Virus record (IMG/VR): IMGVR_UViG_3300045988_135886
DNA from: a virus
DNA length: 64,000 nt
Reading direction: 5' to 3' (one strand)
Below are positions 2,700-49,179 of the stretch, one piece after another; the stretch's first letter is position 1; the number at the start of each line of letters is the position of its first letter. The position numbers were made by a program, and so were the translations under genes. Below the pieces are notes generated by a model, which saw only the letters and a list, made by a program, of their open reading frames with translations, was not told the DNA's origin and searched no databases.

Positions 2700-3284
2700 T
2701 TATTTTTTTGCTTGTGTTTCAACAACATAGACCTTGCCTGGTCTGCACTTAATCTGTTTAATCTTCATGCCATCTCTACGACGTGCTTCTGGCGTGTCGG
2801 TGTAACCTTCGAAGCTATTAAAGCCCACCGGCGGTAATCTGTGACCTTCGGAATACTTGACAGGTAAACCATGACCGAATACAGGTTTGGAATCTTCTTC
2901 CCATGAGATGTTATAGCCCTGACCGTCAACTCGTGCCTGTGAGTAACAGCCGCTTTTTGAGCCATACATAGGTTGTGGATGCTTCTTCTCACGTGGAAGC
3001 ATGGAAGCTATAGCTCTAGTATCTCTACGACATTTTACAGGTTCTTCACTGATAAAATCAGCAGAGTTCATGAAAGCTATAATGAAATGTCTAATATCTG
3101 GATGGTCTTTAGTAGTGGTGTCTACCCATCTGTAGCCATTCCAGACTTTGAGCCGTGACACTCTGTAATGTGGTCTAATACACACGTAAAGTGTGCCATT
3201 GACATTACCAAAAAGGCTGTAAAGAGGTAACACATAGTTGTGAAAGTTAGTGCCAAAACCTCTGACCTGTGAACATGGTTTCAT
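2700..3284 (-). CDS. hypothetical protein (194 aa)
   Basis: RBS taggagg before the ATG. No motif recognised. Confidence 0.6.
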   Translation of the reverse strand: MKPCSQVRGFGTNFHNYVLPLYSLFGNVNGTLYVCIRPHYRVSRLKVWNGYRWVDTTTKDHPDIRHFIIAFMNSADFISEEPVKCRRDTRAIASMLPREKKHPQPMYGSKSGCYSQARVDGQGYNISWEEDSKPVFGHGLPVKYSEGHRLPPVGFNSFEGYTDTPEARRRDGMKIKQIKCRPGKVYVVETQAKK

Positions 3285-11268: not shown

Positions 11269-12354
11269 GGAGACTTAATGTTTACTACTAACAATACTAT
11301 CTTATTAAAACATACAGAAAACCTACCGCCAATCTATTGCATCCAACGTAAAGGAAACAAGGTAGTTCCGACTGAGACAGATATGATACAAGCTAATAAA
11401 GGTTCTTTCGGTGATGCGATTGGTCCTATTACTAATGTTATCACTTCACAGATATGCTTACAGGCAAGGTTCCCGAAAGACAGTGAGGAATATAAAGTCT
11501 TAGACTACAGGATATTGTGTGGGCAGCTGTTCCAACAGAACTCTATTGATAAAGCTAAAGGAATCATCGCTAAACCTATGCCAAAACATTGGTATGACAA
11601 TAGCTACAACCGTATAGAAGAAACAGATACACCAGAAGAAATATCTAAGAAGGAATTCAATCAGAGAATTTGTGCAGATAAGAAGCCGTACTTCTTCATC
11701 TACAACTACCCTACTCTTATGAAAGAATACAAAGACTACATCAAAACATCAGATGCCGTGAGCAGGTCCAGATTTAATATTCCGCTGGAAGAGCTGCTGT
11801 CATCACAAGAGTTGACTGAAGAACAGGCAGAGTTTCTTAAATTCTATAAAGAATTCTATCCAGTCAATGCAGAAACCTGTGTAGTCAATGAACTCTGTTG
11901 GGAAATTGAGAAAACACTGGCTGATGTAAAAGAAAGTAAGGTACCGTTTGACAGTTCTATTCTGAAGTCAGATGCCACCTACACAAATAAGGATAAGGCT
12001 TTTATAAAACGTATCTATGATAAATATAACAAAACTTATGCAAACAGAATGAGCCGCCATAGCTCTGTGTATGAAGATACTTCTTTAACTCCTATTGGAA
12101 TGACTTTTGAATCAGAGTGTGCAGAATATGTTCCAGACGCAGAAAAGCTTTGTAACATTCTGGTTGATTTGGGATATAACACAAAAAAGGGTAAAACTTT
12201 CGTCTGGGAGATGTCCGGAGATACTATTATTGATAACCTTCTTTCTCGAACAGATGGTTATGCGCAGTTTCCTGTAAAGGATCCAGACGGTGATATAGAG
12301 TTTTGCGGCGAACACTTCTCAATGAAAAAAGTAAAAATGAAAGGCGAAGAATAA
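11269..12354 (+). CDS. YonO/RdRP-like RNA polymerase, exon 2
   Basis: In-frame codons GGA GAC (G-D) at 11269-11274 complete GADCD|GD. The ORF continues for 362 codons. Confidence 0.7.
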   Translation, partial: GDLMFTTNNTILLKHTENLPPIYCIQRKGNKVVPTETDMIQANKGSFGDAIGPITNVITSQICLQARFPKDSEEYKVLDYRILCGQLFQQNSIDKAKGIIAKPMPKHWYDNSYNRIEETDTPEEISKKEFNQRICADKKPYFFIYNYPTLMKEYKDYIKTSDAVSRSRFNIPLEELLSSQELTEEQAEFLKFYKEFYPVNAETCVVNELCWEIEKTLADVKESKVPFDSSILKSDATYTNKDKAFIKRIYDKYNKTYANRMSRHSSVYEDTSLTPIGMTFESECAEYVPDAEKLCNILVDLGYNTKKGKTFVWEMSGDTIIDNLLSRTDGYAQFPVKDPDGDIEFCGEHFSMKKVKMKGEE

Positions 12355-13232
12355 TGGATTTAATACTCAACGAAAAACAATATATAGAAAAAATGTTAGA
12401 ACTCGGTGATTGTAGCCCTAAAGATTTAGGAGCAAACATAGCTCTTCTAACTAGATATATGTATCAGGAAAAGTATACTCAGAAAGAAATTTATAATGGT
12501 ATAGAAGAATTTGCTTCCAAAGTAGATTCTGATTTTGATATCAATAACTGGTACTCATTTATAGACAAATGTATTGGTAAAGCTAAGAAGAGAGATCTGT
12601 TGAACATTGATTATATACCTATTACGCAGAAAGAGTTAGATACCATCAAGGAAATCAAGAATCCTGCCAGGGAAAGACTTGCATTCACTCTTTTAGTCAT
12701 TGCCAAGTTTAACAATCTAAAATCAGAAACCAATAATAACTGGATCAATTATTCTATGGACGTATATTTCAACCTTGCCAGAGTAACTTGTAAAGTAGAT
12801 GATCGTCCGTACATAATTTATGACTTAAAGGAATTGGGGTTGGTTGAAGTGAGTAAAAAGATAACTCGCTTCAATATAAGAATCACATTTGTTGATAATG
12901 AGTCTGATCCGGTGCTTAAAATTACAGATATGCGTGAGTTGGGCTATCAGTATCAGAACTTGGGCCCGAAGTCTAAGATAAAGCTGTGTAAACGCTGCGG
13001 GAAGCCGTATAAAGTGAAATATTCTAAAGGCGGTTCACCTTATTGCACCGATTGCCAGAATAAAAGTGCCAAGGATGAAACAAAACTTATTACGTGTGAT
13101 TGTTGCGGCAAAGAATTTATTGCAGTATCTAAAAATAATCGTTCTGTACTTTGTTCCGAATGTCAAAATATTATTGACTTAGAAAAAACTCGTCAAAGAG
13201 TTGCTAAACATAGAGAAAAAAGGCATATGTAA
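12354..13232 (+). CDS. hypothetical protein with C-terminal multi-CxxC zinc-ribbon region (292 aa)
   Basis: ATG 12354 overlaps the preceding TAA (TAATG). RBS gaaagg. CKRCGKPY...CTDCQ...CDCCGKEF...CSECQ. Confidence 0.65.
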   Translation: MDLILNEKQYIEKMLELGDCSPKDLGANIALLTRYMYQEKYTQKEIYNGIEEFASKVDSDFDINNWYSFIDKCIGKAKKRDLLNIDYIPITQKELDTIKEIKNPARERLAFTLLVIAKFNNLKSETNNNWINYSMDVYFNLARVTCKVDDRPYIIYDLKELGLVEVSKKITRFNIRITFVDNESDPVLKITDMRELGYQYQNLGPKSKIKLCKRCGKPYKVKYSKGGSPYCTDCQNKSAKDETKLITCDCCGKEFIAVSKNNRSVLCSECQNIIDLEKTRQRVAKHREKRHM

Positions 13233-26563: not shown

Positions 26564-27024
26564 ATGAAACTTAATTTTTCAAGTAATGAAGTAAGAAATA
26601 TTTTTGCTGAAAATGATTATGCAGAGTACTCCCAGCTTATGTTTGACACAGCTAAGGGAGAAGAAAAAGTATCTACAAAAGATGCTAATAATAAAATCAG
26701 AGAGATTATGTTCTCTGTACTTGGAGTAGATGAAAACTGCTCAAGAAAAGAACTTAGAAAAGCTATTCGTAGACATAAAATTGATGTATTTGAAATTATC
26801 GAAGAGACAGTAGAGAATCTGCTTGTTTCTGGTTGGGGAGAAAACCCATTCTTCAATGAATTTGTAGAAATCAAATCTATGGCTGACGGTGATACTAATG
26901 AGTTCTATGTACCGGATGAAGTTATTCTGACAGTGTCTGAACTTGCAGGCAATCATCATGACCTGATCAGACAGCGTCTGGCAGAAGGACAGACATTCTC
27001 TGTTAGAACTTCATGGTATGGGAT
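26564..27024 (+). CDS. major capsid protein, exon 1
   Basis: RBS aaaggagg. Ends ...FSVRTSWYG, then 3 codons and a stop. Together with 28265-28883 it makes a 359-aa protein in the capsid position. Confidence 0.65.
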
Positions 27025-28264
27025 TAACTTTTAGTCCCCAAGTACTGTAAAGTGCTTTGTACAAACTAACGCATTGAATTGCTGGAATTTCTTAAAGCTA
27101 ATTACACTACAACGTAAGTATGAAATAAAACTAAGCGTGAATGTTATGAAAATAGAAAGAAGTAATTAGATGATACAAGGTTAAATCCTAAATATCGAGA
27201 GCACTCAACACCTATAACAGGTGTTTTTATTATGCTTAAAATAGAGAATCAGCAGCCAAGATCCGAACAGGATAAGGTTCAACGACTATCTGGAAACAGA
27301 GTAGAACTACAAGCGATTGGTAGTTCGAAGTGGTGCGCACCCTCAATTAGGGTGAAGATATAGTCTAATCTTTAGTGAAAGCTAAAGGGCTTTTAGCCAA
27401 CACAGAGTAGCGTCTGAATTAATATCATTTTTCAAAATAATTATATAAGGAAGTATACATGAAAGAAAAACTATGTGGCATTTATTGCATAGAGAATATA
27501 CTCAACAATAAAAAATATATTGGTATGTCAAGAGATATAAAACGGAGATGGTCTGAACATAAAACAGAATTAAACTCTCATACTCATGTCAATCAGTATT
27601 TACAAGCTGCCTGGGATAAGTACGGCAAAGAAAATTTTAAGTTTTATATTATTGAGTTATGTGATGAAGAGAATCTCAGTGAACAAGAATGTCATTATAT
27701 ACGTTTTTATAAATCATTATCACATGAAAATGGATACAATCTGACTACTGGTGGAGAAAATACTTCTATCGGCAAATCAGTAATATCATTAAAAGATGGG
27801 GCTATCTACAATTATGTAAATGATGCAGCTCAAAATGCCAACGTTCAGTCAGCAACTATGATTTCATGGTGTCGTCAAAAACATAACTATATGTATTTAG
27901 ATGAGTATAACGCTCTTTCTCAAGATGAGAAAGAATATTGGAAAAATTTTGATTGGAAAAACTTTGATCATAAAAAATTAAGTCAAGTACATTCTCGAGA
28001 AAATCTCTCAACAACTACCCTGAAAAAACTAAGTCAAGCGACATCTGGAGATAAAAATCCAAGAGCGCTAAAAGTGTATTGCCCACAATTAAATGAAACA
28101 TTTGATTGTATAAAATATGCATCAGATAAGTATGGCGTTAATAGAGGAAGTATAACTTCTTGTATTAAAGGTAGACTTAAAAGTGCCGGTAAACATCCCG
28201 CTACCGGAGAAAAATTAACATGGGAACTAATTGAAAAATGATATTAAAGTGTTAAATATAAATG
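27025..28264 (+). mobile_element. group I intron (GIY-YIG-encoding) in the major capsid gene
   Basis: P box gaattgctggaa (27076-27087), Q box aatcagcagcc (27247-27257), R box gttcaacgactat (27277-27289), S box gaagatatagtct (27354-27366). Guide tttta-gtccc (27029-27038): gtccc pairs with gggat (27020-27024, U27024:G27034), and tttta pairs with exon 2 taaaa (28265-28269) after G28264. The join is in frame. Confidence 0.8.
27459..28241 (+). CDS. GIY-YIG homing endonuclease (intron-encoded)
   Basis: CGIYCIENILNNKKYIGMSRDIKRRWSEHKT...NGYNLTTGG. RBS aaggaag. Confidence 0.85.
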   Translation: MKEKLCGIYCIENILNNKKYIGMSRDIKRRWSEHKTELNSHTHVNQYLQAAWDKYGKENFKFYIIELCDEENLSEQECHYIRFYKSLSHENGYNLTTGGENTSIGKSVISLKDGAIYNYVNDAAQNANVQSATMISWCRQKHNYMYLDEYNALSQDEKEYWKNFDWKNFDHKKLSQVHSRENLSTTTLKKLSQATSGDKNPRALKVYCPQLNETFDCIKYASDKYGVNRGSITSCIKGRLKSAGKHPATGEKLTWELIEK

Positions 28265-35537: not shown

Positions 35538-38069
35538 ATGGCTGATTATATAATAAACGTTGGTGTACAAGTCGAGGACAGTGCGCTAAATGCATTAGAA
35601 ACACGAATTAATTCTTTAAAAGAGAAGCACATTAAACTAGGTGTGGAATTAAGTAATACTAAACAGCTAACTAAAAATGCACAGACAGCGGTAAAGACAA
35701 TAAGTAAAGCAACTGCCAAAGCCGCTAAAAATACTCCTGTTATTAAGGGATCTAATCTTGTAGAACAGATGGTAAATCCTGAAGAAGCTTTAAAATCTAT
35801 GGCTAATACAGTCAGTAAGCTGTCAAGGTATCAGGACAAGCTTGATCTAGGAGAAGTAAAACTTTCCGTAAATCAAGGTATTATGGGGGAGCTTGATGGA
35901 CTTTTAGCCAAACTTAATGAAATAAAATCTACAGCTAAAAACATGGGCTCTATTAAGCTTACTGTTGGAGACAATATAAAAACTAAAGACGGTAAAATAG
36001 TTGTTGGAGAAACTACTAGTTCTTCTAATACTGCAAGATCTACAGGCATTACTCTTAGACAAGCTCAAGCTGAAATTAAGAGAAATATGAAGACAATAGG
36101 AACCCTACAGGAACAGTATATAAGTGGGATTATTGATGAAAGTACTTATAAACAGTCAAAGAGAACTATAGGACATAGAAATTCTCAGCTGGCTAGACAG
36201 ATACAAAATCAAGGTACTGCTTCTGATTGGGTTACTTCTGCATCTGACATTCGAGGAGCACAGGCTAAGAATCAAGAAGCATACAAAGCAATGACTCAGA
36301 GTGCTTCAGAATATGACAAAGTTATCACTAATTTGGGTGAGAAACAGAAGACATTCAATAAAATGGCTCAAGTATATAATCCTAACAATGGTAAACCATT
36401 AGATAAAACTCTAGGACAAGGTTATGATGAAAGATTAAAATCTTTCAATGATACATATGAGCAATTAAAAAAATCTCGTGATAGTCTTGCGACTCTTACT
36501 GGAGACGAAAGAGACACTGAGCAAGTACGTTTTGCTGCTCTTCGCTCTGAAGCCAATCGTCAAGCTAGATATCTCGGTAATACTAATCAGTTTTTCTCAC
36601 GTACTCCAAATAGATATAGCCGTTCAGAATATATTGGTACAGATTTAGATCCAGCATCTGATAAGGTCCGTCTTAAGATGGAACAAATGTCAGCAGATCT
36701 GGCAAAAGGAAGCAAATACACAACAGAGTTTAATGCAGCACAAGGTAAAATGTATGCTACTATTGATAGAGGGTCTGGTGTATTTGAAAAATATCAATTA
36801 GCATATAAAAATGGTCCAGGTAATATTGACCAGTCTCTTACTAAAGTTACACAAAGTGTAAAACCTTTATCTAGTTATCTTTCTGAAATGGGACAAAAGT
36901 TCCGTAGTCTTAGCCAGTATCTTGTAAGCAATTTTGGATTCCAAGCATTAACAACGGGTGTCAGATCCGGTGTCGAATCAATAAAAGAATTAGATTCAGC
37001 GATGACTGAACTTAAGAAAACATCAGATGGTACAAAACAAGAATATAGAGACTTTACTACTCAGGCCAGAACTGATGCCAAAGACATTGGTAGTACAACA
37101 ACTCAGATTACTAGTAGTGCTGCTGATTTTTCTCGTCTTGGATATAGCTTAAATGAATCTCAGACTTTAGCTAAAAATACAGGTATTTTAAAAAATGTAT
37201 CAGAATTCGGATCTATAGATGATGCAACAACCGCTATGATTTCCATGATGAAAGCATACGATGTAAAAGTTGATGATTCTATGGATCTCGTTGATAAAAT
37301 GAATCTTATTGGTAACAACTATGCAATTTCTACAGACGGAATTGCCACTGCTTTACAAGATTCAGGTTCAGCATTAGTAGCAGCGGGAAATGACTTCGAT
37401 AAATCAGTTGCTCTCGTTACGGCAGCAAATAGTGTAGTGCAGGATCCATCGAAGGTAGGTGCTGGTCTTAGAACAATTGCATTACGACTTAGAGGCACTT
37501 CTGCTGAAGAATTATCTTCTATGGGTGAAGATACAGAAGGTCTTGTAGAGACCACTTCTAAACTTAATTCAAATATTAAATCTCTTACTGCCGTTAACGG
37601 TAAGGCTGGAGTTTCTATTCTTGATATGAATGGAAACTATAGAGATACTTATGATATTTTAAAAGATATCTCTCAGGTTTGGGATGATATTGGTAAACAA
37701 GATTTGGCAGATGGTCAGAATAGACAGGCTGCTCTGCTTGAAATGATGGCAGGAAAAAATAGAAGTAATATTCTTGCATCCATATTGCAGCATCCTGAAT
37801 TGCTTACAGATGTTTATAATGATTCCGCAAATAATTATCAAAATTCAGCTCAGAACGAGCTTAATACATACCTTGATTCTATCGAAGCAAAAACAACTAA
37901 AATTAAAGAATCTTGGTCACAGTTATGGCAATCAGAAGGTAGTACTAATACTTTTAAAGGATTGCTTGATATTGGCAACGGCGCTGTAGGACTCTTAAAT
38001 GGTTTGGGACTTAATAAATCCTTAGCCGGAGTCGGCGGTATGCTTGTTAGCCATGCTATGAACTGGGGT
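35538..38069 (+). CDS. tail tape measure protein, exon 1 (TP901-type core region)
   Basis: RBS gaggtgag. NLIGNNYAISTDGIATALQDSGSALVAAGNDFDKSVALVTAANSVVQDPSKVGAGLRTIALRL. The listed ORF runs 9 further codons to 38096. Confidence 0.75.
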
Positions 38070-38525
38070 GGGACAAATTATCAGTTGGTCCTTTAGAAAA
38101 CGCCCCATGTAACCTGGTGGTGACACGGAACGATCTCATATGAGAAAGGGGTTACTAAGCAAACAACCGAAACTGTCTTTATTCGAAGGAATAGAGAAAT
38201 GCTTTTAATTTAGCATTCAGGGTGAACCGAAGTATATACTACTCCCCTATTACAGCAATGTAATAGGTATAGTAACAACGTATATATATGGGTGATCTGC
38301 AGCGAAGCTTCTCTCTGAGAAGAACGTTCATCGACTATAATGGGAACTTGGTCTCTGGATCAAGAAGGAATAGTCAGGACTGTTAGGCAGCTTGCGCCGA
38401 ATAAATTAAAGGGTAAATACATCTTACTCTCGTAAGCAATCTTACCTTATGTGCAAAGGTGATGTAAGCACAAATCTTTACTTTATTATTCTTCTATGCT
38501 ATATTTCACATAGGAGGGTAAAACT

Positions 38526-38990
38526 ATGATAATAAATAATTCTATCAGAACTTATGCACCAATTGCTCCGCCATATTTTGACGGATGCTTATTTATGAAT
38601 GCAACTTATGAAATGCCAGAGGAACTGGCCAATTTGTTTACTAAAGGATTAGAATCCTTAAGCAAACATTTATATGAAAAAAATATTGATCCTACTAAAT
38701 TATTTCCTGTAAGTTTAATATTTACAAAAGATGGCAGTTTTTCTGTCACCGAAAATGAAGCAACCACTTATGGAAGATGTATGTCTTTTTTAGTATACTC
38801 CATGGAACGAATAATTACATCTAACAATCAACACATGCAGCTATTCGCATTTATTGAAGAATTAGTGCATTACTATTTTCAAGAAACAAATGAAACAAAA
38901 GTCAAACTAACTACTTTTTCTGTTGTCCAGAAAATATTCCCAGAAATAACTTTCGAGGAGGTAACATCATGGGGAGTAAATTGGAGTTAA
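38526..38990 (+). CDS. intron-cargo hypothetical protein (154 aa)
   Basis: RBS taggaggg. No homing-endonuclease motif. Contains FIEELVHYYFQE. Confidence 0.55.
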   Translation: MIINNSIRTYAPIAPPYFDGCLFMNATYEMPEELANLFTKGLESLSKHLYEKNIDPTKLFPVSLIFTKDGSFSVTENEATTYGRCMSFLVYSMERIITSNNQHMQLFAFIEELVHYYFQETNETKVKLTTFSVVQKIFPEITFEEVTSWGVNWS

Positions 38991-39254
38991 TGTTTATTAG
39001 CAAAGAGAAAAGTCAAATAATTAATTCTCCTATTATAAAAGGTATTACTTGTGATACTTATAAAACAAACTTACAAAATTCATCAAAAGAGCAAAAGACT
39101 ATTCAGTCTCCTGCTCTTTCTTAATATAATACGTACAATCTTCGTTTTCAAAGTACGGACATTCCTCTTCCCTGCACTCTTTATAAAGAGGACATTCTAA
39201 TATTTCCATAATCTTTAAACCTCCATAATATAGTTTTGAAAGTAGGTGTATTTA

Positions 39255-39425
39255 ATGGATAAAAACATTTTTGATAGATTAGTTCCTAAATATCTTCAAA
39301 AGCTAAGCTCAGACGAAATTACAGATTTACTTATAGAAATCAGTGATATTGGCAGAACAAAATTTATCAGTAATTACCCAAAAGAAATTGCTGATCAACT
39401 CCCAGGATATGACTTATACGAATAA
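39255..39425 (+). CDS. intron-cargo small ORF (56 aa, MDKNIFDRLVPKYLQKL...)
   Basis: RBS gtaggtg. Below the ORF-track cutoff. Followed by the hairpin at 39503. Confidence 0.4.
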   Translation: MDKNIFDRLVPKYLQKLSSDEITDLLIEISDIGRTKFISNYPKEIADQLPGYDLYE

Positions 39426-39502
39426 TCTTTTTCGGTTGTATTCAATGCAGTCGAGATTGTTAACTTTCCTATAGTATTGTGCAGAGTGTTAGTGTACAGA
39501 AA

Positions 39503-39526
39503 GGAGAACTGTGGTGGCAGTTCTCC
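39503..39526. terminator. bidirectional hairpin between the convergent cargo blocks
   Basis: 9-bp stem ggagaactg/cagttctcc. T-rich on both sides in the respective orientations. Confidence 0.55.
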
Positions 39527-39604
39527 TTCTATTAAATAAAAATTTTAAAAAGAGAAATACATATGACGAAGTAATTAAATGATAAAGTAGAACATTATTA
39601 GCGA

Positions 39605-39790
39605 TTAGTCAACTTTTTTATTCTTGTATTGTCTTTTCATCATTCCGGTGATAAATTTGACTTTCTCATCAGATAATTCTGGATGATTGCAAATTTGATC
39701 AACAGTATGATTTTTCGAGTTGTAATATAGACCAGCTAATATTACAACAAGTAAAAGACTACTAAGAGATATTATTATTCCAGTATTCAT
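39605..39790 (-). CDS. intron-cargo single-pass membrane protein (61 aa)
   Basis: ATG 39790 with RBS gggggtg. Transmembrane segment IIISLSSLLLVVILAGLYY. Confidence 0.55.
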   Translation of the reverse strand: MNTGIIISLSSLLLVVILAGLYYNSKNHTVDQICNHPELSDEKVKFITGMMKRQYKNKKVD

Positions 39791-40037
39791 ATTCTTCTTT
39801 TCACCCCCTTCCCTTATAAATTTCTTTATTGGGGAAGTGTATTGCCCAGAACGGGCAGATTCTTCGTCCACATCAACAATACAGAATGTATGCCAACACT
39901 TCTGCATGATCAAAAGAAATGATCAAGTATATTATCGTGCAGCGAGTTATAATGCAGCACCTATAACCATAATATACCTAGTAGTATAATAACAATATTC
40001 GACAACTTTGTATATACAGAACATTAGTTTATTATAA

Positions 40038-40547
40038 TCAAAACTTAGCTCCACACTTACAGCACTGATAAGTCTTACCAAGATCACCTGCTCCAAAAAG
40101 ACCAAACAGACCTATCTTCATTGCTTTTCTTGTTCCAGTGATTTTCTTAAGATTTGTGCTGCCGCAGATTGGACACTTAGGCCCAGTAGAGAATTTCTGA
40201 GCATTCTGTTTGGCATACCACTGGTCTGTGTTTTTGTTTCGTTGCTCTACTCCTTCAGGAGATTCCCAGTATTTTCTTTCTGCAGTGGCTGCTTTGGTAA
40301 CATCAGAGTCTAGCTTGCCATAGAAATATTTCTCTCGGAGCATTTCATCAGATTCTTCTATGCTAGGATAATCACCATTATGTGTTTTTTTATACTCTTC
40401 TGTTACTTCTGCATAAGCTTTAGAAAAGTTTATTGTTGTACCTATAAGATTACCCTTTAAACAACTTGAACATAAATCACCTATAGTATTTGAACAACTC
40501 ACTGCTCCACATTTATTACAAAATAAAAGTTCACTCATAATTTTCAC
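40038..40547 (-). CDS. intron-cargo double zinc-ribbon protein (169 aa)
   Basis: RBS aaaggtg. CNKCG...CSSC at the N-terminus and CPICG...CCKCG at the C-terminus, with a G-rich hydrophobic patch IGLFGLFGAG. Confidence 0.6.
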   Translation of the reverse strand: MKIMSELLFCNKCGAVSCSNTIGDLCSSCLKGNLIGTTINFSKAYAEVTEEYKKTHNGDYPSIEESDEMLREKYFYGKLDSDVTKAATAERKYWESPEGVEQRNKNTDQWYAKQNAQKFSTGPKCPICGSTNLKKITGTRKAMKIGLFGLFGAGDLGKTYQCCKCGAKF

Positions 40548-40575
40548 CTTTTATATAGTTTTTAAGATGAACTAT

Positions 40576-40604
40576 ATTATATCACAGTATCTGGTTTTTG
40601 AAAA
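40576..40604 (-). promoter_or_regulatory. leftward promoter for the antisense cargo block, straddling the predicted 3' splice site
   Basis: The reverse complement gives ttttca (40604-40599), 17 nt, then tgatataat (-10 at 40581-40576). About 30 nt upstream of ATG 40547. Confidence 0.5.
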
Positions 40605-43600
40605 GAACGATCAAGGTGGAATTTTACCAGAAACACGTTGGAGTAGAAGAACAAGATTGTACAACGAAGGTCGTGCGGAGGCTTTATCAAATTGGAAAGA
40701 ATATGATAATGACACAAGAGCATTGACCCAGCTTAATAATGCACTTCAGAATAATGGTCAAACTATTACCGATAACGCAGAAAGACAGAAAATTGCTGAT
40801 AAAACTCTAAAAAATGCCAGTGAAAGAGCGAAAGAATATGGTAACCAAATTGTAGCGAATACGAAAACTCTTAGTGACTTTAAGAAAGAGAATGAAGTAG
40901 AGGACCCCAATAAGCAAGTAAAACCTAAATTTACTGATGGATTAAAAAGTTTTGCTTCTTCTGCACTTTCATCAATTGGTAATGCTGTTGTTTCTGCCGG
41001 TACAGCAATGATTGCACAGCAATTAATCTCATGGGGACTTCAAGGTATTGATGCTATTGTTCATTGGAATGATAACATTATTGCTAAAGGAAAAGAAGCA
41101 AAAGAAACAATCCTTGAGCAAAATCAAACTTATAAAGATCAGAAGTCTCAATTAGAAGAGCTCCAAGAACAATATACAAAATACGCTTCAGGTGTCAAAA
41201 TCTCTGGTAATATTATTAAAAATGCCACTCTTTCGGATGAAGATTTTCAAGCGTTTCTCGATACAAGTAATCAAATTGCTAACTTAGCACCTTCTATGAT
41301 TGATGGTTGGGACTCTGAAGGCAATGCTATTCTTAAATTTGGAACGGATACCAAAGAAGCTAATCAGCAAATTTCAGATTATATTCAACTCCAACGTGAC
41401 GTAACACATCTATCCATTAGAGATAATCTACAGGATGAGTATAAGGGTGTAGTTAAAGATGCAGAGAAAACTGGAAAAGAAATTTCTAATAAAAAAGATC
41501 AAAAAAAGGAAGCAGATACTATTACATCTGGATGGACCGCATTAAAAAATGCAACCGAAACAGATGGACCTATTACTTTTACTACAACTGCACCACAAAA
41601 AGAAGTTGAAGAATTACTAGATAAATATAAAGTTACATCGTTAATAACTAGCGATGTAAATGGTGATACTTATACAGTAGATATGTCAGAGCTTTCTGCG
41701 GCAGATAAAAATGCTCTTAAAACGTCTCTTGAATCTAAAGAAGCATTAGCTCAAGGTAATGCCAATTTAATTGAATCTGAAAAACTTGCTCAAGAAGCTG
41801 TACAAGCATCTAAATGGAAAGATTTACTTCCAAGTTTACAAGCATATGTTGAATCATCAAATATGTTTGATAACATGGATTCAGATGTTGCAGAAAGAGC
41901 TAAAAATGGCATTAACACAATGCTATCCAATATTGATATTTCTAAAATGACAGATCAAATAAAAGATGCTGGTGGTATTGATGATTGGATTGATAAGACT
42001 TTAATCGCTCCTATGACATCGGGTTCGAAAGATGTTCAAAAAGCTTGGGCTGACCTTTTTTCATTGGAAGACTCTTATGGTTCCGAAGATTCAAAGATGA
42101 CAGTTGGAGAATGGTCCAAACAGCGAAATGATTATCTTAAAACAATTTCTGAAGGTACTGGTGAAAGTTTTGATAGTCTTGCTAAAAAATTAGGATATAA
42201 AACTGATGAAGGTTGGACTGTTAGAGAACAGATTAACAATGCAGCTGCTCGTCTTTATGGAAAAAACTATGATAGAGATCAAAGAGCGGAAATAGGTAGT
42301 TATTTAAATGGATTGACCAAAGATAATTATGAAATAGCTATTGATTTACTTATTAATGGTGATAAAGCATTTTCTTCTTTAGATGAATTTAAAGAAAAAG
42401 TTAATGAAGCAATAAGCAATGCTAAGAATCAGGCAGATGAAGCTGCTGTTTCTTTAGATTCAATGGAAACGAAAGTATCAACTGCTAAGTCTACTCTTTC
42501 TTCTATGGGAACTATTCTTACAGAGACTACTTCTGCAGGTGGAATTTCTAAAGACAATGTTAAGATCCTTTCTACTGCTTTCAAAGATGTGAAAGATCCT
42601 CGTGGCATTGAGCAAAATGTTAATGATTTATTCACCACTACTTCTGATGGTATCAAACTAAACATAGATGCTTTGAAAACCTTTACGGAATATCAGGCTG
42701 AAGCCACTGATGGAGATTTCGAAAAGGGTATTAAGTTACAGACTAAAGCTATTGCCGAGCAAGCAGAAGAAACAGATAAAGCTTGGAAAGCTATTGCTAA
42801 AGCCGATGACAAGGAAGCAGCTAGAGCAACTTATGACGCAGAAAAAGATAAATTAAAAGATGCTAGAGACGAATATTTATCCTATATGCAATCTCAGTCT
42901 GAATGGCAAGCGACTAAGAAACAGCAACAGGAACTTCTCTCCTATTATTCTCAGTGGCAACGTGCTCAGAGTACGGAGAATGCCGGAGATAAATATAATA
43001 ACATTGTCGCAGGACTAAAGAATGCTAAAGATGCATATGATAAAGGTCTTGTAGGTACAGATGATTTTAAATCATTTGCTGCTCTTATTTCTCCTACAGG
43101 TTCAGATGATAGAGCAAACTTTGCAGAGAATTATGGTAAAGCTGTAAGATACCTCACAGAAGATAAGACAGGTGTTAATAATTTCTTAGCTGATCTTAAA
43201 TCTAAGGGTATGGCATCTTATGATGATGCAAGTAAAAGATGGTCATTTGACATAGATGATATGAGTAAAGCCGCTCGATCAATGGGAATCAGCAAAGAAT
43301 TCATGAGTGCTAACTTCGGTCGTCTTCGTGATTATGGCATTGATAATAACTTTATATCATCTATAGAGGAAGGTATAGACAGAACTCAAGAACTTACTTC
43401 TGCCCTTTCAGATGAACAGAAACGACTCGAAGAACTGAAAAATACAGATAGTACTAACACTACTGCTATTTCTGCTTCTGAGGATAAAGTTAATAAATAT
43501 AAACAGGATTTAAAAGAAACCTATGATAACATGGAGTCTTATTCAGAAGATGCTGCTCAAAATGCTGTTGATAATTTCAATTCATCTGCCATGGGAGCGC

Positions 43601-46600
43601 AAGCCTACGAAGAAGAGATAAAAAGAGTTCAAAAAAATGATCAATTGACAAATGATCAGCGAAATGCAGCTATTAATCAATTAAAAGCTAAACAAGAAGA
43701 GCTAGCTGCTTCTGCCGGTACAACTGTTGAAGCTCTTTTAGGAACAGATGTATCTTCATTAATGGATGGTATCATAACAGATTCTGCTTCTGTTACTACA
43801 GCTCTTGATGGTATCAATAAAGCATATGAAGAACAGAACACAGATGTTACTTCTTTAGTAGACACTCTTGGAAAATATACTTCTGAACAGTTAGAAGGTA
43901 TAGATTTCAATGATGGTAAATGGGACACTGAATTAGGTGATGCAGAAAAAGCTGTTGAATCTTTATGCGAAAAACTCGGTTTAACTAAAGACCAAGCTCG
44001 TTCTGTTATTGAGGCTTTAAAAGAAGCTGGTAAATTAAAAGATTCTGAGAAAAGTAGTGATTCCTCTAAAGAAACTACTAAGGGGTCTTGGGAGAAACCA
44101 CAGACTGCTGAACAGATGGGATTCGGTGATGATCCTGATAGGGCTGCTGAATATACACATTCATTGGAAGCTCTTACTGCTGCCCATAAAGAAAACGATG
44201 CCGCTACTGAAAAGTCATTTGAAACCCTTTCTAAATATAACCGTACACAATTAGAGGGCATCAAATTAAATGATGGTGCTTATAATGTTGAGGGTATGGA
44301 ACAGGCTGAAGATGCCATACAACAGTTAGCAGATAAGACTCAGTTGTCTAAAGATCAGATCCTTACTGCTCTTGAAGGTCTTGGTGTTTTGAAAGTTAAT
44401 GCTCCTACTATGGATGCGACAAAAGGTTTGGAAGATTTAGTTTCTGAGGCTAAAGATGCACAGGACGAATTGTCTGACCTTACTGGTAAAACATACACAT
44501 TTGATTTTGATACTACTGATTTAGATACTGCTCATAAACAGGTAGCTGACCTGCAGGAAGAAGTAAATAAATATAGAGATCGTGATGGTAAATACCATCC
44601 AGAGATTACTGGCGGAGAACAGGTGCAATCAATGTACAAAGCCGCTATTGCTCAAGAACAGAATGCTGAATATAGTTCTTCTGCTATTGGACAGTCTAGC
44701 TTATCATCAGATGTCGTACAAGCTGCTCAAGATTTCATGCAAGCCAAGAATGAAATGGATCAACAAACACAACTCTATCAGAATGGTATGGACAACACCC
44801 TTGATCAGGCTACTCAAGATGCCAATGCAGCTTTTGAAACCTTACAACAGGCTCAGACTGATTCAGGTATCAAATTAGTAGATACAGACAATATTCAAAC
44901 TGCCGAAGATCAGTTATTACAATTATCCAATGAAGATATTGGTGATAAAATCAAAATAGATGTTGATACAACTTCTGTTGATGACGCTCTTGCCGATGTA
45001 CAAGCACTTGCAGCAGACGGAAAAATGGGAAGTATTGACTTAGATTTTAATGTTAATACGATGTCTATTGATGATATAGATTCTAAGATAGAAGAATTGA
45101 CAAATCAACAGAAAGTATTAACTATTCTAGGAGATGTTGAGGGAGCAGATAAAGTACAAGCTCTTATTGATGCCTTGCAGCAAGTACATGACAAACAAGT
45201 TGAAGTTGTTGCACAGACCCAAGGTGCAGATTTAGTAGACCAACTTCAGTCACGAATAGCCGAATTGCAAGATAAGAATGTATCTATTGATGCAATTGTT
45301 CAAGATGATAAAGTTCAAAGTCTTATAAGTGAAATTGCTGCTCTCCCACCAGAAGTCCAAATAGCTATTGGTGTAAATGAAAATAATGTAGGAAATGCAG
45401 AAGCTATCAAAGCTCAGATTGAATCCGATCCTGCAAGTATTACTGTAAATTATGTTAAAGGTGAAGAACCTGAAAAAGCGGATGACATTGAAGGAAAAGC
45501 TAATTTTACTCTTGGAGAACATCCTACAAAAGCTCCAGACATTTCAGGTACAGCTAATTATAGTCTTGGTAGTTATCCTAAAACTGCTCCAACTATTTTT
45601 GGTACTGCTGTTTATACTAAAAAGATTCAAGCTTCTGGCACAATGACATCAGTTGCTCACGCTTCTGGAACAGCTTATAACGTTCTTAATATGAGACCTC
45701 TCTCTTCTGCTCATGCAAAAGGTGATGTAGCACTTAAACATGATGAGCAAGCACTTATTAATGAGGTATGCATCAACGGTCATTCTGAATCCATAGTGCG
45801 TGATGGTGTATGGTCGCTTATTCCTGGTGGTGCTCATATTGAGAATTTGAAAAAAGGTGACATCATCTTTTCAGCTACTCAAACAGAGGATTTATTAAAA
45901 CATGGTGCTACACATGGTCATGCTAGAGCATATGCACAAGGCACTGCTTCCAGTGTAACCCTTGCTCCTGCCTATGCAGACGGTACATCAGAATTAGATG
46001 ATACAATTAAAAAAGTAAGTACTCAAGCTAAAGACTGGATAGAAACTGCTCTTGATCGTTTAGAGAGAATCGTTGAAAAGTATCAAGATATCGCTGAAAG
46101 CGATTATAGTAATTATAAGTCTTCTGAGAAGAATTATGATAAAGCACTTAAAAATCTGAATAAACAATTACAGACACAAAAAGATTCCAGAGCAAAATAC
46201 GTAGCTAAAGCAAATGAAGTTGCTTCTGCTGTTGGTTTATCTGACGAACTGAAAAAGAAAGTCCAGAATGGTACAATCAATATTGAAAGTTTATCCGAAG
46301 ATGATAAGAAACGTGTTGACGCATATCAGGAATGGTATGAAAAAATCTTGGATTGTGACAAAGCGATTCGTGAACTCACTAAGTCACAGAAAGATTTAGC
46401 TAAAGCAAAGGTCGAACGTGTTATTGAAGCTTATGACACCGTCATAGGTAAACGTGAGAATAAAGCTGACTATTACAAAGCTAAACAGGAATTGAGAATC
46501 TCACAAGGGTATAATCAGAAACCTGGTTCTAAATATGAAAAATACATGAAAAAGGAACTCTATTATACCAATGAACAGAAACGTCTTACTGATAAAGAAA

Positions 46601-49179
46601 TAAAAGAATATAAAGGTAGGATGAAAGAATATCTTAAGGTAAATGGACATAAAACTGTCGATCCAGAATACCAAAAGATGAAGAAACAGCTTTATAGTCT
46701 CCAGACAGAGGCTGTTAAGTTAGAAAATGAAGCTGCTGAATTAGTTCAGGCTTTACAAGATAATCGTGAACAGATAAAACAATGGGCTGTTGACCGCTGG
46801 GATCGTGCAGGTTCCAAGCAGGATGCAGTAATTGATTACGCAAAAGCAAATGATAATCCTGAGTATCAGATTAACGAAAAGATTTATCAGGAGCGCATTA
46901 AATCTAATGCGAGACAGATCAATGCACTTCAAAAGCTTCGTGCAGAAAAAGCCGAATACTATGATACTCATTTTTCTTCTATGAATAATGAAGAAGCCCA
47001 GAAATATCTTAATTCTATAGCACAGATTGACGAACAAATTTTAAAAATCGGCAGTGATATAGAAAATCTGAAAAATGAAATCATGGAACTTCGCTGGAAA
47101 CCATTTGATGATGCACAAGATAAACTATCAAATGTTATCACTGAATATCAGACTATGCAAAAACTTCTCGGTGACGCTGAAAGTTTTTACAATGATGATG
47201 GTTCATTTACTACAAATGGATTAACTAACATTTTATTAACTCAAGAATCTATAGATGCGACAAAACAGAAGATTGCTAACTATAGGGAAGGTCTTAATAA
47301 GCTTGAAGAACAATATAAAAATGGTTGTTACAGCTTAGACGAATACAATGAGAAAAGCAAACAACTTCTTGATGGTATTCAACAAGAATCTACTGCTCTT
47401 TCTGAACTGAAACAGAATATGCTTGATATGTATGAGACTCAAATTAAGAAAGAGAATGATTTACTTCAGGAAAATATTGATAAGCGTAAAGACGCTCTTT
47501 CTGCTAAAGAGAAATATTACGATTATGACAAAACTTTAAAAAAGAAGTCTAAAGATATTAATACTCTTAAATCCCAGATAGCTGCCCTTGAAGGAACCAG
47601 TAATGCTGCCGCCAAAGCTCGTCTTGAGAAATTACGTGCGGAACTTGCAGATGCCGAAGATGATATGGCAGATACCATGCATCAACACGAAGTCGATATG
47701 AAAAATACCGGCTATGAGAATTTCTCTAATGAAGCGAATAAAGCTCTTGATAATACACTTGATGCAGTAAAGAAAAATTCTTCGTTTCAGGAAGCTATTA
47801 TTAATGGAATGCTTACCAATGTAACCACTAATTATGATAACACATATAAACATTTACATACTGTGATGGATCAGTATGGTGTTAAGGTGTCTGGCACATT
47901 TGATACTATGATAGGTAAGTCTGCTGATTTCAATACAAGTTTAATTCAACAGATAAAAGCATTAGAAACCATTTCTAATATGAAAGTTACTCTTCCATAC
48001 GGAACAAGCAATGGACAAGGTGGTTCTACAACTGGTAATAATACATATACCGGTGCTGAGAATGGTATTCACAATACATTTAATAGCAATAAAGACTCCA
48101 CTGGTGCTGGAAATGAAACTCCAGGTACAGTTAATAACAAGAAATACAGTTTAAAACTAAACGCTACTGATATTTATTTAACTTATGACCATATTAAACA
48201 GCAGCTTAAAGCAACATGGTCACCAAGCAAACCGGAACACTCTGATATTGAGTGGAAAAGTTCTGATGAATCTATTGCAAAAGTTTCTTCTGATGGTACA
48301 GTTCGTGGTGTGTCTTCAGGTCTTAATAAGAACGGTTTAATGGCGCGTGATGAGTCTAAAACAAGAAAATGTATCATTACTGCTATTGGCGGTGGTGGTC
48401 TTGCTAAAGCTACTTGTACCGTTCATGTAATGCCAAATGCTCATTACGAAGCAATTAAATCCTATGCAGCTAATGCAGGGATTGATGTTACTTCTGGAGA
48501 TAACTTAAGAGCCGCCATGCAATATGCATATCAAAATGGGGCTAATCATAGCTACCAGTCTGATGTCGCAGTTGAAGGATTCAAAAAGGCATATCTGAAG
48601 GATTGGACAAGCTCTCTACCTAATCGTCCAGATGGAGCAACTGATATTCCATCTGGTGTTAGTCAGTTAGTAGGTTACTTCAATTCCAAAGGTAAAAAAG
48701 TCGGACCAAAAGAAATGCAACAGCTTGCAGATATTCTTGGAATTAGTACTCCAGGTGTTAAAAAATATGATTCATGGGGTTCTGCTTTAAAAAATCAGAT
48801 ACTTCAAAAGTATAAATCATATGGTTTTGCTACTGGTGGAATAATAAATAAGCTAATACCTGCTGATATGAGTACTCTTTTAGGTAAAGCTATTATTAGT
48901 AATGGAGATCAGGGATTCATTGGTGCAAAAGTTGGCGAATCAGTAATGACCGAGGAATTTACTCGTCTGCTCAAACCTTCTATTGCTGCAATGAATGACT
49001 TTACCAATATGTTTAACCCGGTTACTCCTACTGCCACAAATAATGATTATACTATCAACAACGAAGTGAACATTAATGTAGCAAATATGAGTAATGATTT
49101 AGACATCCAAGATGTCGCAAACAAAGTTTCTACAATTATTAATAAAAATATGACTAGAGACTGGAGAAAGCTTAGATGA
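40594..49179 (+). CDS. tail tape measure protein, exon 2 (2861 aa)
   Basis: Long coiled-coil protein directly before Dit and Tal. The listed ATG 40567 has no SD. Has hydrophobic segments, a C-terminal Big_2-like Ig domain and repeated A[HY]AxGT motifs. Confidence 0.7.
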   Translation, partial: VFEKNDQGGILPETRWSRRTRLYNEGRAEALSNWKEYDNDTRALTQLNNALQNNGQTITDNAERQKIADKTLKNASERAKEYGNQIVANTKTLSDFKKENEVEDPNKQVKPKFTDGLKSFASSALSSIGNAVVSAGTAMIAQQLISWGLQGIDAIVHWNDNIIAKGKEAKETILEQNQTYKDQKSQLEELQEQYTKYASGVKISGNIIKNATLSDEDFQAFLDTSNQIANLAPSMIDGWDSEGNAILKFGTDTKEANQQISDYIQLQRDVTHLSIRDNLQDEYKGVVKDAEKTGKEISNKKDQKKEADTITSGWTALKNATETDGPITFTTTAPQKEVEELLDKYKVTSLITSDVNGDTYTVDMSELSAADKNALKTSLESKEALAQGNANLIESEKLAQEAVQASKWKDLLPSLQAYVESSNMFDNMDSDVAERAKNGINTMLSNIDISKMTDQIKDAGGIDDWIDKTLIAPMTSGSKDVQKAWADLFSLEDSYGSEDSKMTVGEWSKQRNDYLKTISEGTGESFDSLAKKLGYKTDEGWTVREQINNAAARLYGKNYDRDQRAEIGSYLNGLTKDNYEIAIDLLINGDKAFSSLDEFKEKVNEAISNAKNQADEAAVSLDSMETKVSTAKSTLSSMGTILTETTSAGGISKDNVKILSTAFKDVKDPRGIEQNVNDLFTTTSDGIKLNIDALKTFTEYQAEATDGDFEKGIKLQTKAIAEQAEETDKAWKAIAKADDKEAARATYDAEKDKLKDARDEYLSYMQSQSEWQATKKQQQELLSYYSQWQRAQSTENAGDKYNNIVAGLKNAKDAYDKGLVGTDDFKSFAALISPTGSDDRANFAENYGKAVRYLTEDKTGVNNFLADLKSKGMASYDDASKRWSFDIDDMSKAARSMGISKEFMSANFGRLRDYGIDNNFISSIEEGIDRTQELTSALSDEQKRLEELKNTDSTNTTAISASEDKVNKYKQDLKETYDNMESYSEDAAQNAVDNFNSSAMGAQAYEEEIKRVQKNDQLTNDQRNAAINQLKAKQEELAASAGTTVEALLGTDVSSLMDGIITDSASVTTALDGINKAYEEQNTDVTSLVDTLGKYTSEQLEGIDFNDGKWDTELGDAEKAVESLCEKLGLTKDQARSVIEALKEAGKLKDSEKSSDSSKETTKGSWEKPQTAEQMGFGDDPDRAAEYTHSLEALTAAHKENDAATEKSFETLSKYNRTQLEGIKLNDGAYNVEGMEQAEDAIQQLADKTQLSKDQILTALEGLGVLKVNAPTMDATKGLEDLVSEAKDAQDELSDLTGKTYTFDFDTTDLDTAHKQVADLQEEVNKYRDRDGKYHPEITGGEQVQSMYKAAIAQEQNAEYSSSAIGQSSLSSDVVQAAQDFMQAKNEMDQQTQLYQNGMDNTLDQATQDANAAFETLQQAQTDSGIKLVDTDNIQTAEDQLLQLSNEDIGDKIKIDVDTTSVDDALADVQALAADGKMGSIDLDFNVNTMSIDDIDSKIEELTNQQKVLTILGDVEGADKVQALIDALQQVHDKQVEVVAQTQGADLVDQLQSRIAELQDKNVSIDAIVQDDKVQSLISEIAALPPEVQIAIGVNENNVGNAEAIKAQIESDPASITVNYVKGEEPEKADDIEGKANFTLGEHPTKAPDISGTANYSLGSYPKTAPTIFGTAVYTKKIQASGTMTSVAHASGTAYNVLNMRPLSSAHAKGDVALKHDEQALINEVCINGHSESIVRDGVWSLIPGGAHIENLKKGDIIFSATQTEDLLKHGATHGHARAYAQGTASSVTLAPAYADGTSELDDTIKKVSTQAKDWIETALDRLERIVEKYQDIAESDYSNYKSSEKNYDKALKNLNKQLQTQKDSRAKYVAKANEVASAVGLSDELKKKVQNGTINIESLSEDDKKRVDAYQEWYEKILDCDKAIRELTKSQKDLAKAKVERVIEAYDTVIGKRENKADYYKAKQELRISQGYNQKPGSKYEKYMKKELYYTNEQKRLTDKEIKEYKGRMKEYLKVNGHKTVDPEYQKMKKQLYSLQTEAVKLENEAAELVQALQDNREQIKQWAVDRWDRAGSKQDAVIDYAKANDNPEYQINEKIYQERIKSNARQINALQKLRAEKAEYYDTHFSSMNNEEAQKYLNSIAQIDEQILKIGSDIENLKNEIMELRWKPFDDAQDKLSNVITEYQTMQKLLGDAESFYNDDGSFTTNGLTNILLTQESIDATKQKIANYREGLNKLEEQYKNGCYSLDEYNEKSKQLLDGIQQESTALSELKQNMLDMYETQIKKENDLLQENIDKRKDALSAKEKYYDYDKTLKKKSKDINTLKSQIAALEGTSNAAAKARLEKLRAELADAEDDMADTMHQHEVDMKNTGYENFSNEANKALDNTLDAVKKNSSFQEAIINGMLTNVTTNYDNTYKHLHTVMDQYGVKVSGTFDTMIGKSADFNTSLIQQIKALETISNMKVTLPYGTSNGQGGSTTGNNTYTGAENGIHNTFNSNKDSTGAGNETPGTVNNKKYSLKLNATDIYLTYDHIKQQLKATWSPSKPEHSDIEWKSSDESIAKVSSDGTVRGVSSGLNKNGLMARDESKTRKCIITAIGGGGLAKATCTVHVMPNAHYEAIKSYAANAGIDVTSGDNLRAAMQYAYQNGANHSYQSDVAVEGFKKAYLKDWTSSLPNRPDGATDIPSGVSQLVGYFNSKGKKVGPKEMQQLADILGISTPGVKKYDSWGSALKNQILQKYKSYGFATGGIINKLIPADMSTLLGKAIISNGDQGFIGAKVGESVMTEEFTRLLKPSIAAMNDFTNMFNPVTPTATNNDYTINNEVNINVANMSNDLDIQDVANKVSTIINKNMTRDWRKLR

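Follow-up and report, generated by a model that had tools for sequence, protein, structure and literature searches.

A probable group I intron with exchangeable cargo in the tape measure gene of an SPbeta-like gut phage

In this study, we analyzed a 64,000-nucleotide (nt) stretch of viral DNA (IMG/VR record IMGVR_UViG_3300045988_135886; here called the window), which is DNA of an SPbeta-like gut phage whose relatives carry YonB, YomU, and YomW domains. The tape measure protein (TMP) gene in this window is very probably interrupted by a group I intron of 2,524 nt (38070 to 40593, plus strand), so that two open reading frames (ORFs) that look like separate genes, ORF1 and ORF2, would be the two exons of one TMP. 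The observations consist of the sequence features themselves, covariation in relatives, homology boundaries, and collinearity with uninterrupted TMPs. That these features amount to more than a chance arrangement of letters is shown by the comparative data and not by the window alone.

The split tape measure gene and its predicted junction

ORF1 (35538 to 38096, plus strand) encodes 852 amino acids (aa) and has a Pfam match to PhageMin_Tail (PF10145) at aa 512 to 722; it ends in an 8-aa tail, GTNYQLVL, followed by a UAG codon (38094 to 38096) at which read-through on unspliced RNA would stop. ORF2 (40567 to 49179, plus strand) encodes 2870 aa, of which the first 1000 have no Pfam match, and its ATG is preceded by tatatagtttttaag, where a Shine-Dalgarno (SD) sequence is absent. 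An earlier, sequence-only reading of this DNA had described a TP901-type core with a short unrelated tail in ORF1 and the missing SD sequence of ORF2, and both descriptions were borne out; its remark that nearly every other gene has GGAGG or GGTG was overstated, an SD-like motif being present at 26 of the 40 plus-strand starts that were called mechanically. The DNA between the two ORFs begins with 430 nt free of plus-strand ORFs and continues with small ORFs on both strands; the region after 38096 had been called noncoding for ~430 nt, and 38097 to 38525 indeed contains no plus-strand ORF of at least 40 aa.

When position 38069 is joined to 40594 (predicted ligated sequence ATGAACTGGGGT/GTTTTTGAAAAGAAC), exon 1 (35538 to 38069, plus strand, 844 codons, with the TP901-type core) and exon 2 (40594 to 49179, plus strand, 2861 codons and a stop) form one frame, as had been claimed; it reads ...HAMNWG/VFEKNDQGG... 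and has a single terminal stop and a 3,705-aa product. The assignment to TP901-type TMPs is supported by PF10145 in exon 1, the great length of the protein, a gene for a DUF6558 phage tail protein directly after exon 2, and collinearity with the TMPs of phages Sundance and pW2.

Twenty-six related phage loci were gathered, and tblastn was run with the end of exon 1 (a 100-residue query) and the start of exon 2. Homology to exon 1 stops at ...NWG in all 26 loci, the diverged locus L003 aligning only to residue 81 of 100, and in each of the 25 loci with an exon 2 match, homology to exon 2 begins with the V of VFEKND; the start in L003 was fixed by hand. The boundary holds even where exon 2 is only 50 to 60% identical while exon 1 is 98 to 100% identical. 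The intervening DNA in these relatives is 1711 to 3846 nt long and modular in content. Its last nucleotide, the omega-G at 40593 (plus strand) in the window, is a G in 25 of 25 relatives, as well as in L003 and in the bacterial copy L147 described below. In L003 the junction GVG/IFKHDTDKDG is in frame and homologous to NWG/VFEKNDQGG, and exon 2 again follows directly after a G.

Both boundaries are matched by a contiguous guide on the plus strand. The 5' strand of P1, UGGGGU (38064 to 38069; 5' splice site after U38069), pairs with the internal guide sequence GCCCCA (38102 to 38107), which places a U38069.G38102 wobble at the splice site, and the adjoining P10 half of the guide, GAAAAC (38096 to 38101), pairs with the first 6 nt of exon 2, GUUUUU (40594 to 40599). 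Exon 2 of window-type relatives always starts with GUUUU(U/C), complementary to GAAAAC. Across three intron lineages, P1 and P10 each occur in three complementary versions: UGGGGU with GCCCCA and GUUUUU with GAAAAC in the window, GUGGGU with GCCCAC and AUAUUC with GAAUAU in L003, and GCGGGU with GCCCGC and AAUUUAC with GUAAAUU in L147. The last of these is one of the extended relatives that nhmmer found with the 5' part of the intron in Lachnospiraceae genomes (L111, L112 with two copies, L147, L155, L156, and L173, the last being Lientehia hominis). It is a compact, ORF-less copy of 488 nt that runs from a 5' splice site at GCGGGU/GAGAGG, with the guide GUAAAUU-GCCCGC, to an in-frame 3' splice site at ...GCUCAG/AAUUUAC; its host ORF is long and, as in the window, is followed by the gene of a DUF6558 tail protein. 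All of the guide elements named in the sequence-only reading, including G40593 followed by gttttt, are present, and its placement of both splice sites is supported by the exon boundaries in 26 relatives, the covariation of P1 and P10, and the invariant omega-G.

Uninterrupted homologues lead to the same junction. Brevibacillus phage Sundance (2528 aa) and Bacillus phage pW2 (3126 aa) have single TMPs with the TP901 core in the N-terminal third. In BLASTP comparisons, the match of the Sundance protein to exon 1 (E = 4e-53) extends as far as the junction, and a collinear match to exon 2 sets in near residue 124; the pW2 protein passes the junction by 3 residues and then continues collinearly. 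When a spliced query of 358 aa (junction at 106/107) was searched with HMMER, it matched 1174 proteins, dozens of which are 2254 to 5226 aa long and cover query residues 1 to 356 in one uninterrupted stretch. Pairwise alignments cross the junction without an insertion or deletion, with G/[VILF]F in common (GLG/LFGKNG, AVG/IFAQNKG, NKG/VFTTVED). Removal of the intron therefore restores a frame that is continuous in intron-less homologues.

Comparison with the related locus L004 bears on the state of the intervening DNA. Identity between the window and L004 is 59% over the last 60 nt of exon 1, 99% over the ribozyme module, 77% over the zinc-ribbon region of the cargo, 96% over the last 45 nt of the intron, and 79% over the first 300 nt of exon 2, and the jump at the 5' side falls exactly at UGGGGU/GGGAC. 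Such a profile points to strong constraint on the ribozyme module, to its recent exchange, or to both, and not to decay. It is difficult to reconcile with two independent genes, one for a short but complete tail protein and one for a giant tail protein translated separately, that flank an accessory island and a dead ribozyme-like relic, since no other DNA of the region is as well conserved as the presumed relic (99% versus 59 to 79% in the flanks). Gene callers do see two genes, and the close relatives among the best 120 protein matches all show ORF1 products of ~852 aa; the ribozyme-like stretch has no significant Rfam match, and the island genes have their own SD sequences together with promoter-like and terminator-like sites, all of which would suit two genes. 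ORF2, however, has neither a conserved start codon nor an SD sequence: the ATG at 40567 is ATA at the same site in L004, and in L011, L004, L023, L015, and L003 there is no in-frame start upstream of exon 2, the nearest downstream candidates being without SD sequences. Furthermore, P1 and P10 change in concert with the exons, and the uninterrupted homologues are continuous through the junction. Two independent genes are thus extremely improbable.

Structure and relatives of the ribozyme module

The 5' module of the intron comprises 405 nt (38070 to 38474, plus strand) and is kept in all window-type copies; past ...GCACAAA, the copies diverge into different cargo. It contains a P1 extension, a P2 domain, a hairpin that we call H3, P4 to P6, P7, P8, P9, P9.1, and P9.2, all on the plus strand. 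P2 (38109 to 38114 with 38150 to 38155) encloses a GNRA-capped hairpin (38117 to 38126) and P2b within a domain spanning 38109 to 38155. H3 (38198 to 38217; stem 38198 to 38203 with 38212 to 38217) abuts P4, and its loop, UUUAAUUU (38204 to 38211), forms the 5' strand of a long-range pairing with AAAUUAAA (38403 to 38410), which lies between P9 and P9.1. P4, P5, P5a, and the GNRA-capped P5b occupy 38218 to 38299 (P4, 38218 to 38221 with 38296 to 38299; P5a, 38232 to 38239 with 38280 to 38287). The conserved core (38294 to 38338) consists of the P4' strand (Q), P6 (38308 to 38313 with 38317 to 38322), J6/7, and the P7 5' strand (R; GACUAU, 38333 to 38338). It is followed by AAUGGGAA (38339 to 38346), in the position expected for P3', and then by P8 (38347 to 38353 with 38358 to 38364), J8/7, and the P7 3' strand (AUAGUC, 38370 to 38375), which together span 38347 to 38375. 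P9 (38386 to 38388 with 38396 to 38398), P9.1 (38423 to 38427 with 38432 to 38436), and P9.2 (38450 to 38454 with 38468 to 38472) complete the module (38386 to 38472). The core boxes had been recognized from the sequence: the R box gttcatcgactat (38326 to 38338), the S box gaaggaatagtcagg (38364 to 38378), and the complementarity of gactat and atagtc as P7 are as claimed, and the Q box gatctgcagcg is present, with its true site (38294 to 38304) one base away from the position given.

Complementarity of the helices was checked in six intron lineages. All of those tabulated but P7 occur in three to six complementary versions: P1, the P1 extension, the GNRA-capped P2a, and P4 in three; P8 in four; the H3 stem, the long-range pair, P5, P5a, and P6 in five; and P2, P2b, P9, and P9.1 in six, the sole failure being an irregular pairing of P2b in two lineages. 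The P7 3' strand is flanked by P8 and P9, all versions of which are complementary. The five versions of the H3 loop and its partner are UUUAAUUU with AAAUUAAA in the window, GACAG with UUGUC in L003, GACAG(C) with (G.)CUGUC in L155, L156, and L112, GAUAUC with GAUAUC in L147, and GAUAUU with AAUAUC in L173. RNAalifold on five Lachnospiraceae copies gave 126 pairs with 96% of cells paired, the structure being derived from the same alignment; changes on both sides were found in 36 pairs, compared with 15.7 ± 2.8 in shuffles (0/500) and 4 to 10 in slid-partner controls. The window module itself has a fold z score of -2.73, and its centroid structure reproduces P1, P2, P5a, P6, P7, and P8. An RNAalifold run on the window-type copies plus L003 was not used; near-identical rows dominated it, and the exon was mispaired. 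RNAalifold paired 38060 to 38074 (UGGGGUGGGA) with 38436 to 38445 (UCUUACCUUA), downstream of P9.1, as a G.U-rich alternative to P1; the pairing is probably spurious, though it overlaps one of two copies of AUCUUA discussed below.

The core is homologous to that of recognized group I introns. By blastn against phage genomes, 38266 to 38338 matches the Pseudomonas phages PhiPA3 (85%) and HPP-Temi (96%) at sites that lie within Rfam Intron_gpI matches (71.7 and 59.2 bits, respectively) and span P4', P6, J6/7, and the P7 5' strand; in HPP-Temi, the element splits a DNA polymerase gene in two and carries an HNH ORF. When a single genome of each bacterial species was scanned for the core motif, more than 120 loci were obtained, and in 10 of 18 tested loci the motif lies within an Rfam-positive group I intron. 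The P4-P5-P6 domain with its Q element is present and homologous to Rfam-positive introns, with compensatory changes in P4, P5, P5a, and P6. The putative P7 (GACUAU/AUAGUC) together with GAAGGA-AUAGUC matches the family consensus, but its helix does not vary among the copies.

The region of P3 departs from the standard plan. Complements of the 14 nt after P7 were sought in six lineages, and candidates for P3 were rejected because they overlapped P5 or P8 or held in some lineages only; a consistent partner for AAUGGGAA was not found in these lineages. P7 and P8 are separated by only the 8 nt of AAUGGGAA, and the hairpins P7.1 and P7.2, which in subgroup IA2 and IStron-type ribozymes lie between P7 and P3', are absent; of the 123 bacterial copies of the core motif, only the 7 from Lachnospiraceae have this layout. 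The position expected for the 5' strand of P3 is occupied by H3, with its loop paired to the J9/9.1 segment. In L112, a Lachnospiraceae metagenome-assembled genome, two units consisting of ~100 nt of the same exon end plus the ribozyme module lie 2.8 kb apart, at 1573 and 4349 of the reverse strand, which would fit a duplication of the 5' intron half together with its exon stub; in one of the copies, 51 nt are inserted ahead of the P7 3' strand.

Several results weigh against an intron at this site. An Rfam search of the window found nothing in the intron at the gathering threshold and nothing at an E value of ≤10 on 37800 to 40800; a narrow scan gave RF00028 at 15.2 bits (E = 0.2) over 38169 to 38397, versus a gathering score of 50. 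The sequence-only reading had itself listed the lack of a match to the Intron_gpI model among the outcomes that would tell against the intron, and no significant match was obtained. A canonical P3 could not be assigned, P7 is invariant in all copies and hence without support from covariation, and a helix closing the 2.1-kb cargo was not found. The minus-strand genes within the intron imply converging transcription. Finally, neither the best 120 protein matches nor the IMG/VR loci included a close relative with an intron-less allele, so that mobility is deduced only from the identity jump; tblastn with a 302-aa junction peptide had no match in the phage collection. Apparent 45-156 matches were rejected as intron-less alleles, being read-through of the open frame, and the ligated 22-mer matched 0 viral contigs and, by unrelated chance in each case, 3 metagenome contigs. 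The absent Rfam match is not decisive, because RF00028 also misses completely the compact 488-nt L147 copy with its clear splice sites; it therefore reflects the limits of the model and is not evidence against the intron.

Cargo, the 3' terminal module, and a proposed splicing pathway

The variable cargo region (38475 to 40552, ~2.1 kb) lies downstream of P9.2. In the window it contains a 154-aa ORF (38526 to 38990, plus strand; GGAGGG SD sequence; phrog_33355, no assigned function), a terminator-like hairpin that closes the minus-strand genes (39085 to 39120, minus strand), a 36-aa Cys-rich ORF (39099 to 39209, minus strand; GGAGG SD sequence), a 59-aa ORF present in 16 relatives (39246 to 39425, plus strand), a 102-aa ORF with a hydrophobic stretch (39605 to 39913, minus strand), and the gene of a 166-aa double zinc-ribbon protein (40038 to 40538, minus strand) about 30 nt from the ORF2 ATG. 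Clustering of the cargo ORFs from 23 distinct introns showed that the zinc-ribbon family is the only cargo gene found in every relative: it is present in 23 of 23 introns, on the minus strand beside the 3' end, and sometimes in two copies. The 154-aa, 59-aa, and 102-aa ORFs are variable modules, and minus-strand ORFs of 305 or 225 aa occur in some relatives. In the 1711-nt introns, the ribozyme is followed directly by DNA that matches the terminator hairpin and the 36-aa Cys-rich ORF of the window, and every clustered cargo ORF of at least 100 aa is on the minus strand. Pfam and PHROGs detected no homing endonuclease (LAGLIDADG, GIY-YIG, HNH, His-Cys, or PD-(D/E)xK) among the cargo ORFs. The zinc-ribbon family comprises about 140 clusters, all unnamed; the AlphaFold2 model of the window protein (pLDDT 83) had no fold match in the PDB by Foldseek, and no function emerged from Pfam, PHROGs, or a homologue search.

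The last ~45 nt of the intron hold a hairpin (40553 to 40577, plus strand; stem 40553 to 40560 with 40570 to 40577, loop UUUAAGAUG) that was checked by script and occurs in eight versions, all of them paired. The G.U pairs in five of these versions would be mismatches on the minus strand, which identifies the hairpin as a feature of plus-strand RNA. A MAFFT alignment of the 3' modules was dropped, L023 being out of register. The loop motif UAAGAU (40563 to 40568) is complementary to AUCUUA at 38421 to 38426 and 38439 to 38444; L003 has AAGAU and AUCUU at equivalent places, and compact L147 has neither. This contact could help to bridge the cargo, a suggestion that stays conjectural because the contact is almost without variation. 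A minus-strand sigma-70-like promoter site (40576 to 40604; TTTTCA-17-TATAAT, TG-extended; a consensus match only) overlaps the 3' end of the intron and the first codons of exon 2: UAUUAUA after the hairpin corresponds to the -10 box, and the -35 box lies in exon 2.

That the RNA is actually spliced, in cis and on one long transcript, is an inference, as is any timing of cargo expression. It can be proposed that the late structural transcript runs through exon 1, intron, and exon 2 and that the first 405 nt of the intron fold into the ribozyme. The guide at 38102 to 38107 would pair with the last six bases of exon 1, forming the U38069.G38102 wobble, and exogenous guanosine would cleave after U38069. 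The adjoining guide half (38096 to 38101) would then pair with the first six bases of exon 2 as P10, omega-G40593 would enter the G-binding site, and ligation of the exons would yield one 3,705-aa TMP. With no helix closing the cargo, recognition of the 3' splice site would rest on P10, the omega-G, and perhaps hypothetical tertiary contacts.

Such a pathway assumes splicing in cis of one long precursor, as suggested by analogy with IStrons, whose transposon cargo sits downstream of P9.2 and which splice in cis with 1 to 2 kb of cargo at this position (PMC4227781), and with the late genes of SPbeta, which form one operon transcribed by the highly processive YonO polymerase (PMC5467207). Both precedents speak against trans-splicing, in which exon 1 and the ribozyme would be on one transcript and the 3' module and exon 2 on another, joined through P10 and the UAAGAU/AUCUUA contact. 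The minus-strand genes and terminator-like hairpin between the two modules would fit such an arrangement, as would the lack of a closing helix and the occurrence of the loop UAAGAU and of AUCUU in J9.1/9.2 in both cargo-bearing lineages (window type and L003) and not in compact L147. However, only weak 9/12 plus-strand promoter matches lie just upstream of the 3' module, no more than in shuffled sequences; a strong plus-strand terminator was not found inside the intron, and the loop contact offers essentially no covariation to test. We therefore regard trans-splicing as very unlikely and retain cis-splicing of one precursor as the working model.

Exchange of the cargo is visible among close relatives. 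Exon 1 of L023 and L015 is 100% identical to that of the window; over 38475 to 40900, the cargo, 3' module, and first 300 nt of exon 2 are 57 to 68% identical, and identity afterwards returns to 96%. This mosaic patch, centered on the 3' end of the intron, appears from the sequence comparison to be a recombination hotspot at which cargo is swapped together with the start of exon 2. A broader proposal is that the intron represents an undescribed, rewired group I branch, in which the P3-P7 pseudoknot has been replaced by a P4-adjacent hairpin whose loop takes part in a covarying long-range helix with J9/9.1, and that it is also a permanent "safe harbour" in an essential gene for a fast-changing accessory island, with cargo expression perhaps coupled to TMP splicing through the promoter-like site that overlaps the 3' splice site; we consider this possible but doubtful.

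Other intervening elements were seen in the TMP gene and elsewhere in the window. In L011 (approximately 1442 to 3168), as well as in L012, L024, L025, and L027, there is an extra insertion of ~1.7 kb within TMP exon 1 at about aa 740 to 756; it carries a 377-aa ORF with helix-turn-helix domains, has no Rfam group I match, and may be a second intervening element in the TMP gene. In the window, other long plus-strand ORFs without an SD-like motif at their mechanical starts (28293, 24389, 21174, and 8596) may be downstream exons of further split genes, e.g., those for capsid and RNA polymerase, for which the sequence-only reading had mentioned introns. A classical group I intron (27015 to 27387; Rfam, 72 bits) is followed by a GIY-YIG endonuclease ORF (27459 to 28241) upstream of a YonB-like gene, an arrangement also present in L003 (274 to 658, 79.9 bits) and L004 (GIY-YIG ORF).

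Relation to known introns and significance

Group I introns occur at three sites of TMP genes in prophages of the Bacillus cereus group (TMP-IVS1, IVS2, and IVS3; Tourasse & Kolsto 2008, PMC2504315), and splicing has been shown for introns that Cluster J mycobacteriophages carry in capsid and tail genes (PMC3706429). Like the window intron, the B. cereus TMP introns have P1 and P10 adapted to the insertion site, were defined by comparison with intron-less TMPs, and include copies without a complete homing endonuclease gene. They are, however, compact IA1/IA2 introns with standard cores, whereas the window type measures 1.7 to 3.8 kb, carries several nonendonuclease genes on both strands, lacks P7.1/P7.2 and an assignable P3, and escapes RF00028; moreover, it resides in an SPbeta-like phage, and relatives of its ribozyme occur in Lachnospiraceae.

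The organization of the window intron is reminiscent of that of IStrons (CdISt1 and BcISt1; PMC4227781; bioRxiv 10.1101/2023.11.20.567912), with a 5' ribozyme, kilobases of cargo after P9.2, a distal 3' splice site, and a common P4'-P6-P7 core motif of ~40 nt. An origin as an IStron or derivative, that is, a group I ribozyme mobilized by IS200/IS605 or IS607 that reached the TMP gene by transposition and not by a homing-type route, would account for the placement of the cargo, for the sharing of the core motif with loci that have a RAGATH-18 RNA ~1.4 kb downstream on the same strand, and for the IS200/IS605 TnpA (149 aa) and TnpB (364 aa) genes in the L003 intron (805 to 2345; locus position approximately 11388 to 12928), which are on the sense strand. 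The latter insertion sequence is situated in mid-cargo, 1.1 kb from the 3' splice site, and hence looks like a secondary insertion. Unlike IStrons, whose cargo is sense-strand IS200/605 or IS607 (tnpA, tnpB, guide RNA), the window intron has a constant antisense gene, and no transposase, TnpB, or RAGATH-18 was found in it; P7.1/P7.2, typical of IStron ribozymes, are absent, and nhmmer similarity to the RAGATH-18 loci is limited to the ~40-nt core. An IStron origin is accordingly unlikely, and it concerns only where the intron came from, with no conflict with splicing. The RAGATH-18 loci themselves (L058, L059, L069, and L080), in which this RNA is the guide RNA scaffold of an IS607 TnpB, are probably IStrons that have the P4'-P6-P7 core in common with the window intron.

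The introns of the jumbo Pseudomonas phages PhiPA3 and HPP-Temi share 85 to 96% identity with the window over 50 to 73 nt of the P4'-P6-J6/7-P7 core, but they have a standard layout with P7.1/P7.2 and a clear P3, reside in other host genes, and differ in all peripheral domains. In the phage T4 nrdD (sunY) intron, the ORF likewise lies 3' of the catalytic core, and a short 3' terminal domain is required to bring the 3' splice site to it; this ORF, however, is the only one, is read in the sense direction, and encodes a homing endonuclease, and the core is of the canonical IA2 type. Group I introns with antisense genes have been described in nuclear ribosomal DNA (rDNA): as in the window, Didymium Dir.S956-2 has a protein gene on the strand opposite the ribozyme, but it is a eukaryotic rDNA intron whose cargo is a homing endonuclease (PMC3679873). 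Introns in TMP genes and antisense intron genes are therefore not new; it is the combination of features that is unusual. It joins a lineage undetected by RF00028, without P7.1/P7.2 or an assignable P3 and with an extra covarying long-range helix, to an exchangeable cargo of 1.7 to 3.8 kb that lacks a homing endonuclease, is placed as in IStrons, and includes a constant antisense gene with a promoter-like site across the 3' splice site, in every sampled relative.

These results have consequences for annotation, since the TMP is called as two genes in these gut phages, an abundant group in which a single ORF1 cluster comprises 1,665 sequences. A real product of ~3,700 aa would change the predicted tail length and any protein-based classification. 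Because RF00028 detects neither the intron nor its compact relative in Lachnospiraceae, this lineage is probably undercounted in genome surveys. An intron with multigene, nonendonuclease cargo would stand between classical homing introns and IStrons, and it may offer a tractable case for examining the means by which a 3' splice site at a distance of 2 kb from the core is recognized and for asking whether accessory genes are sheltered in introns.

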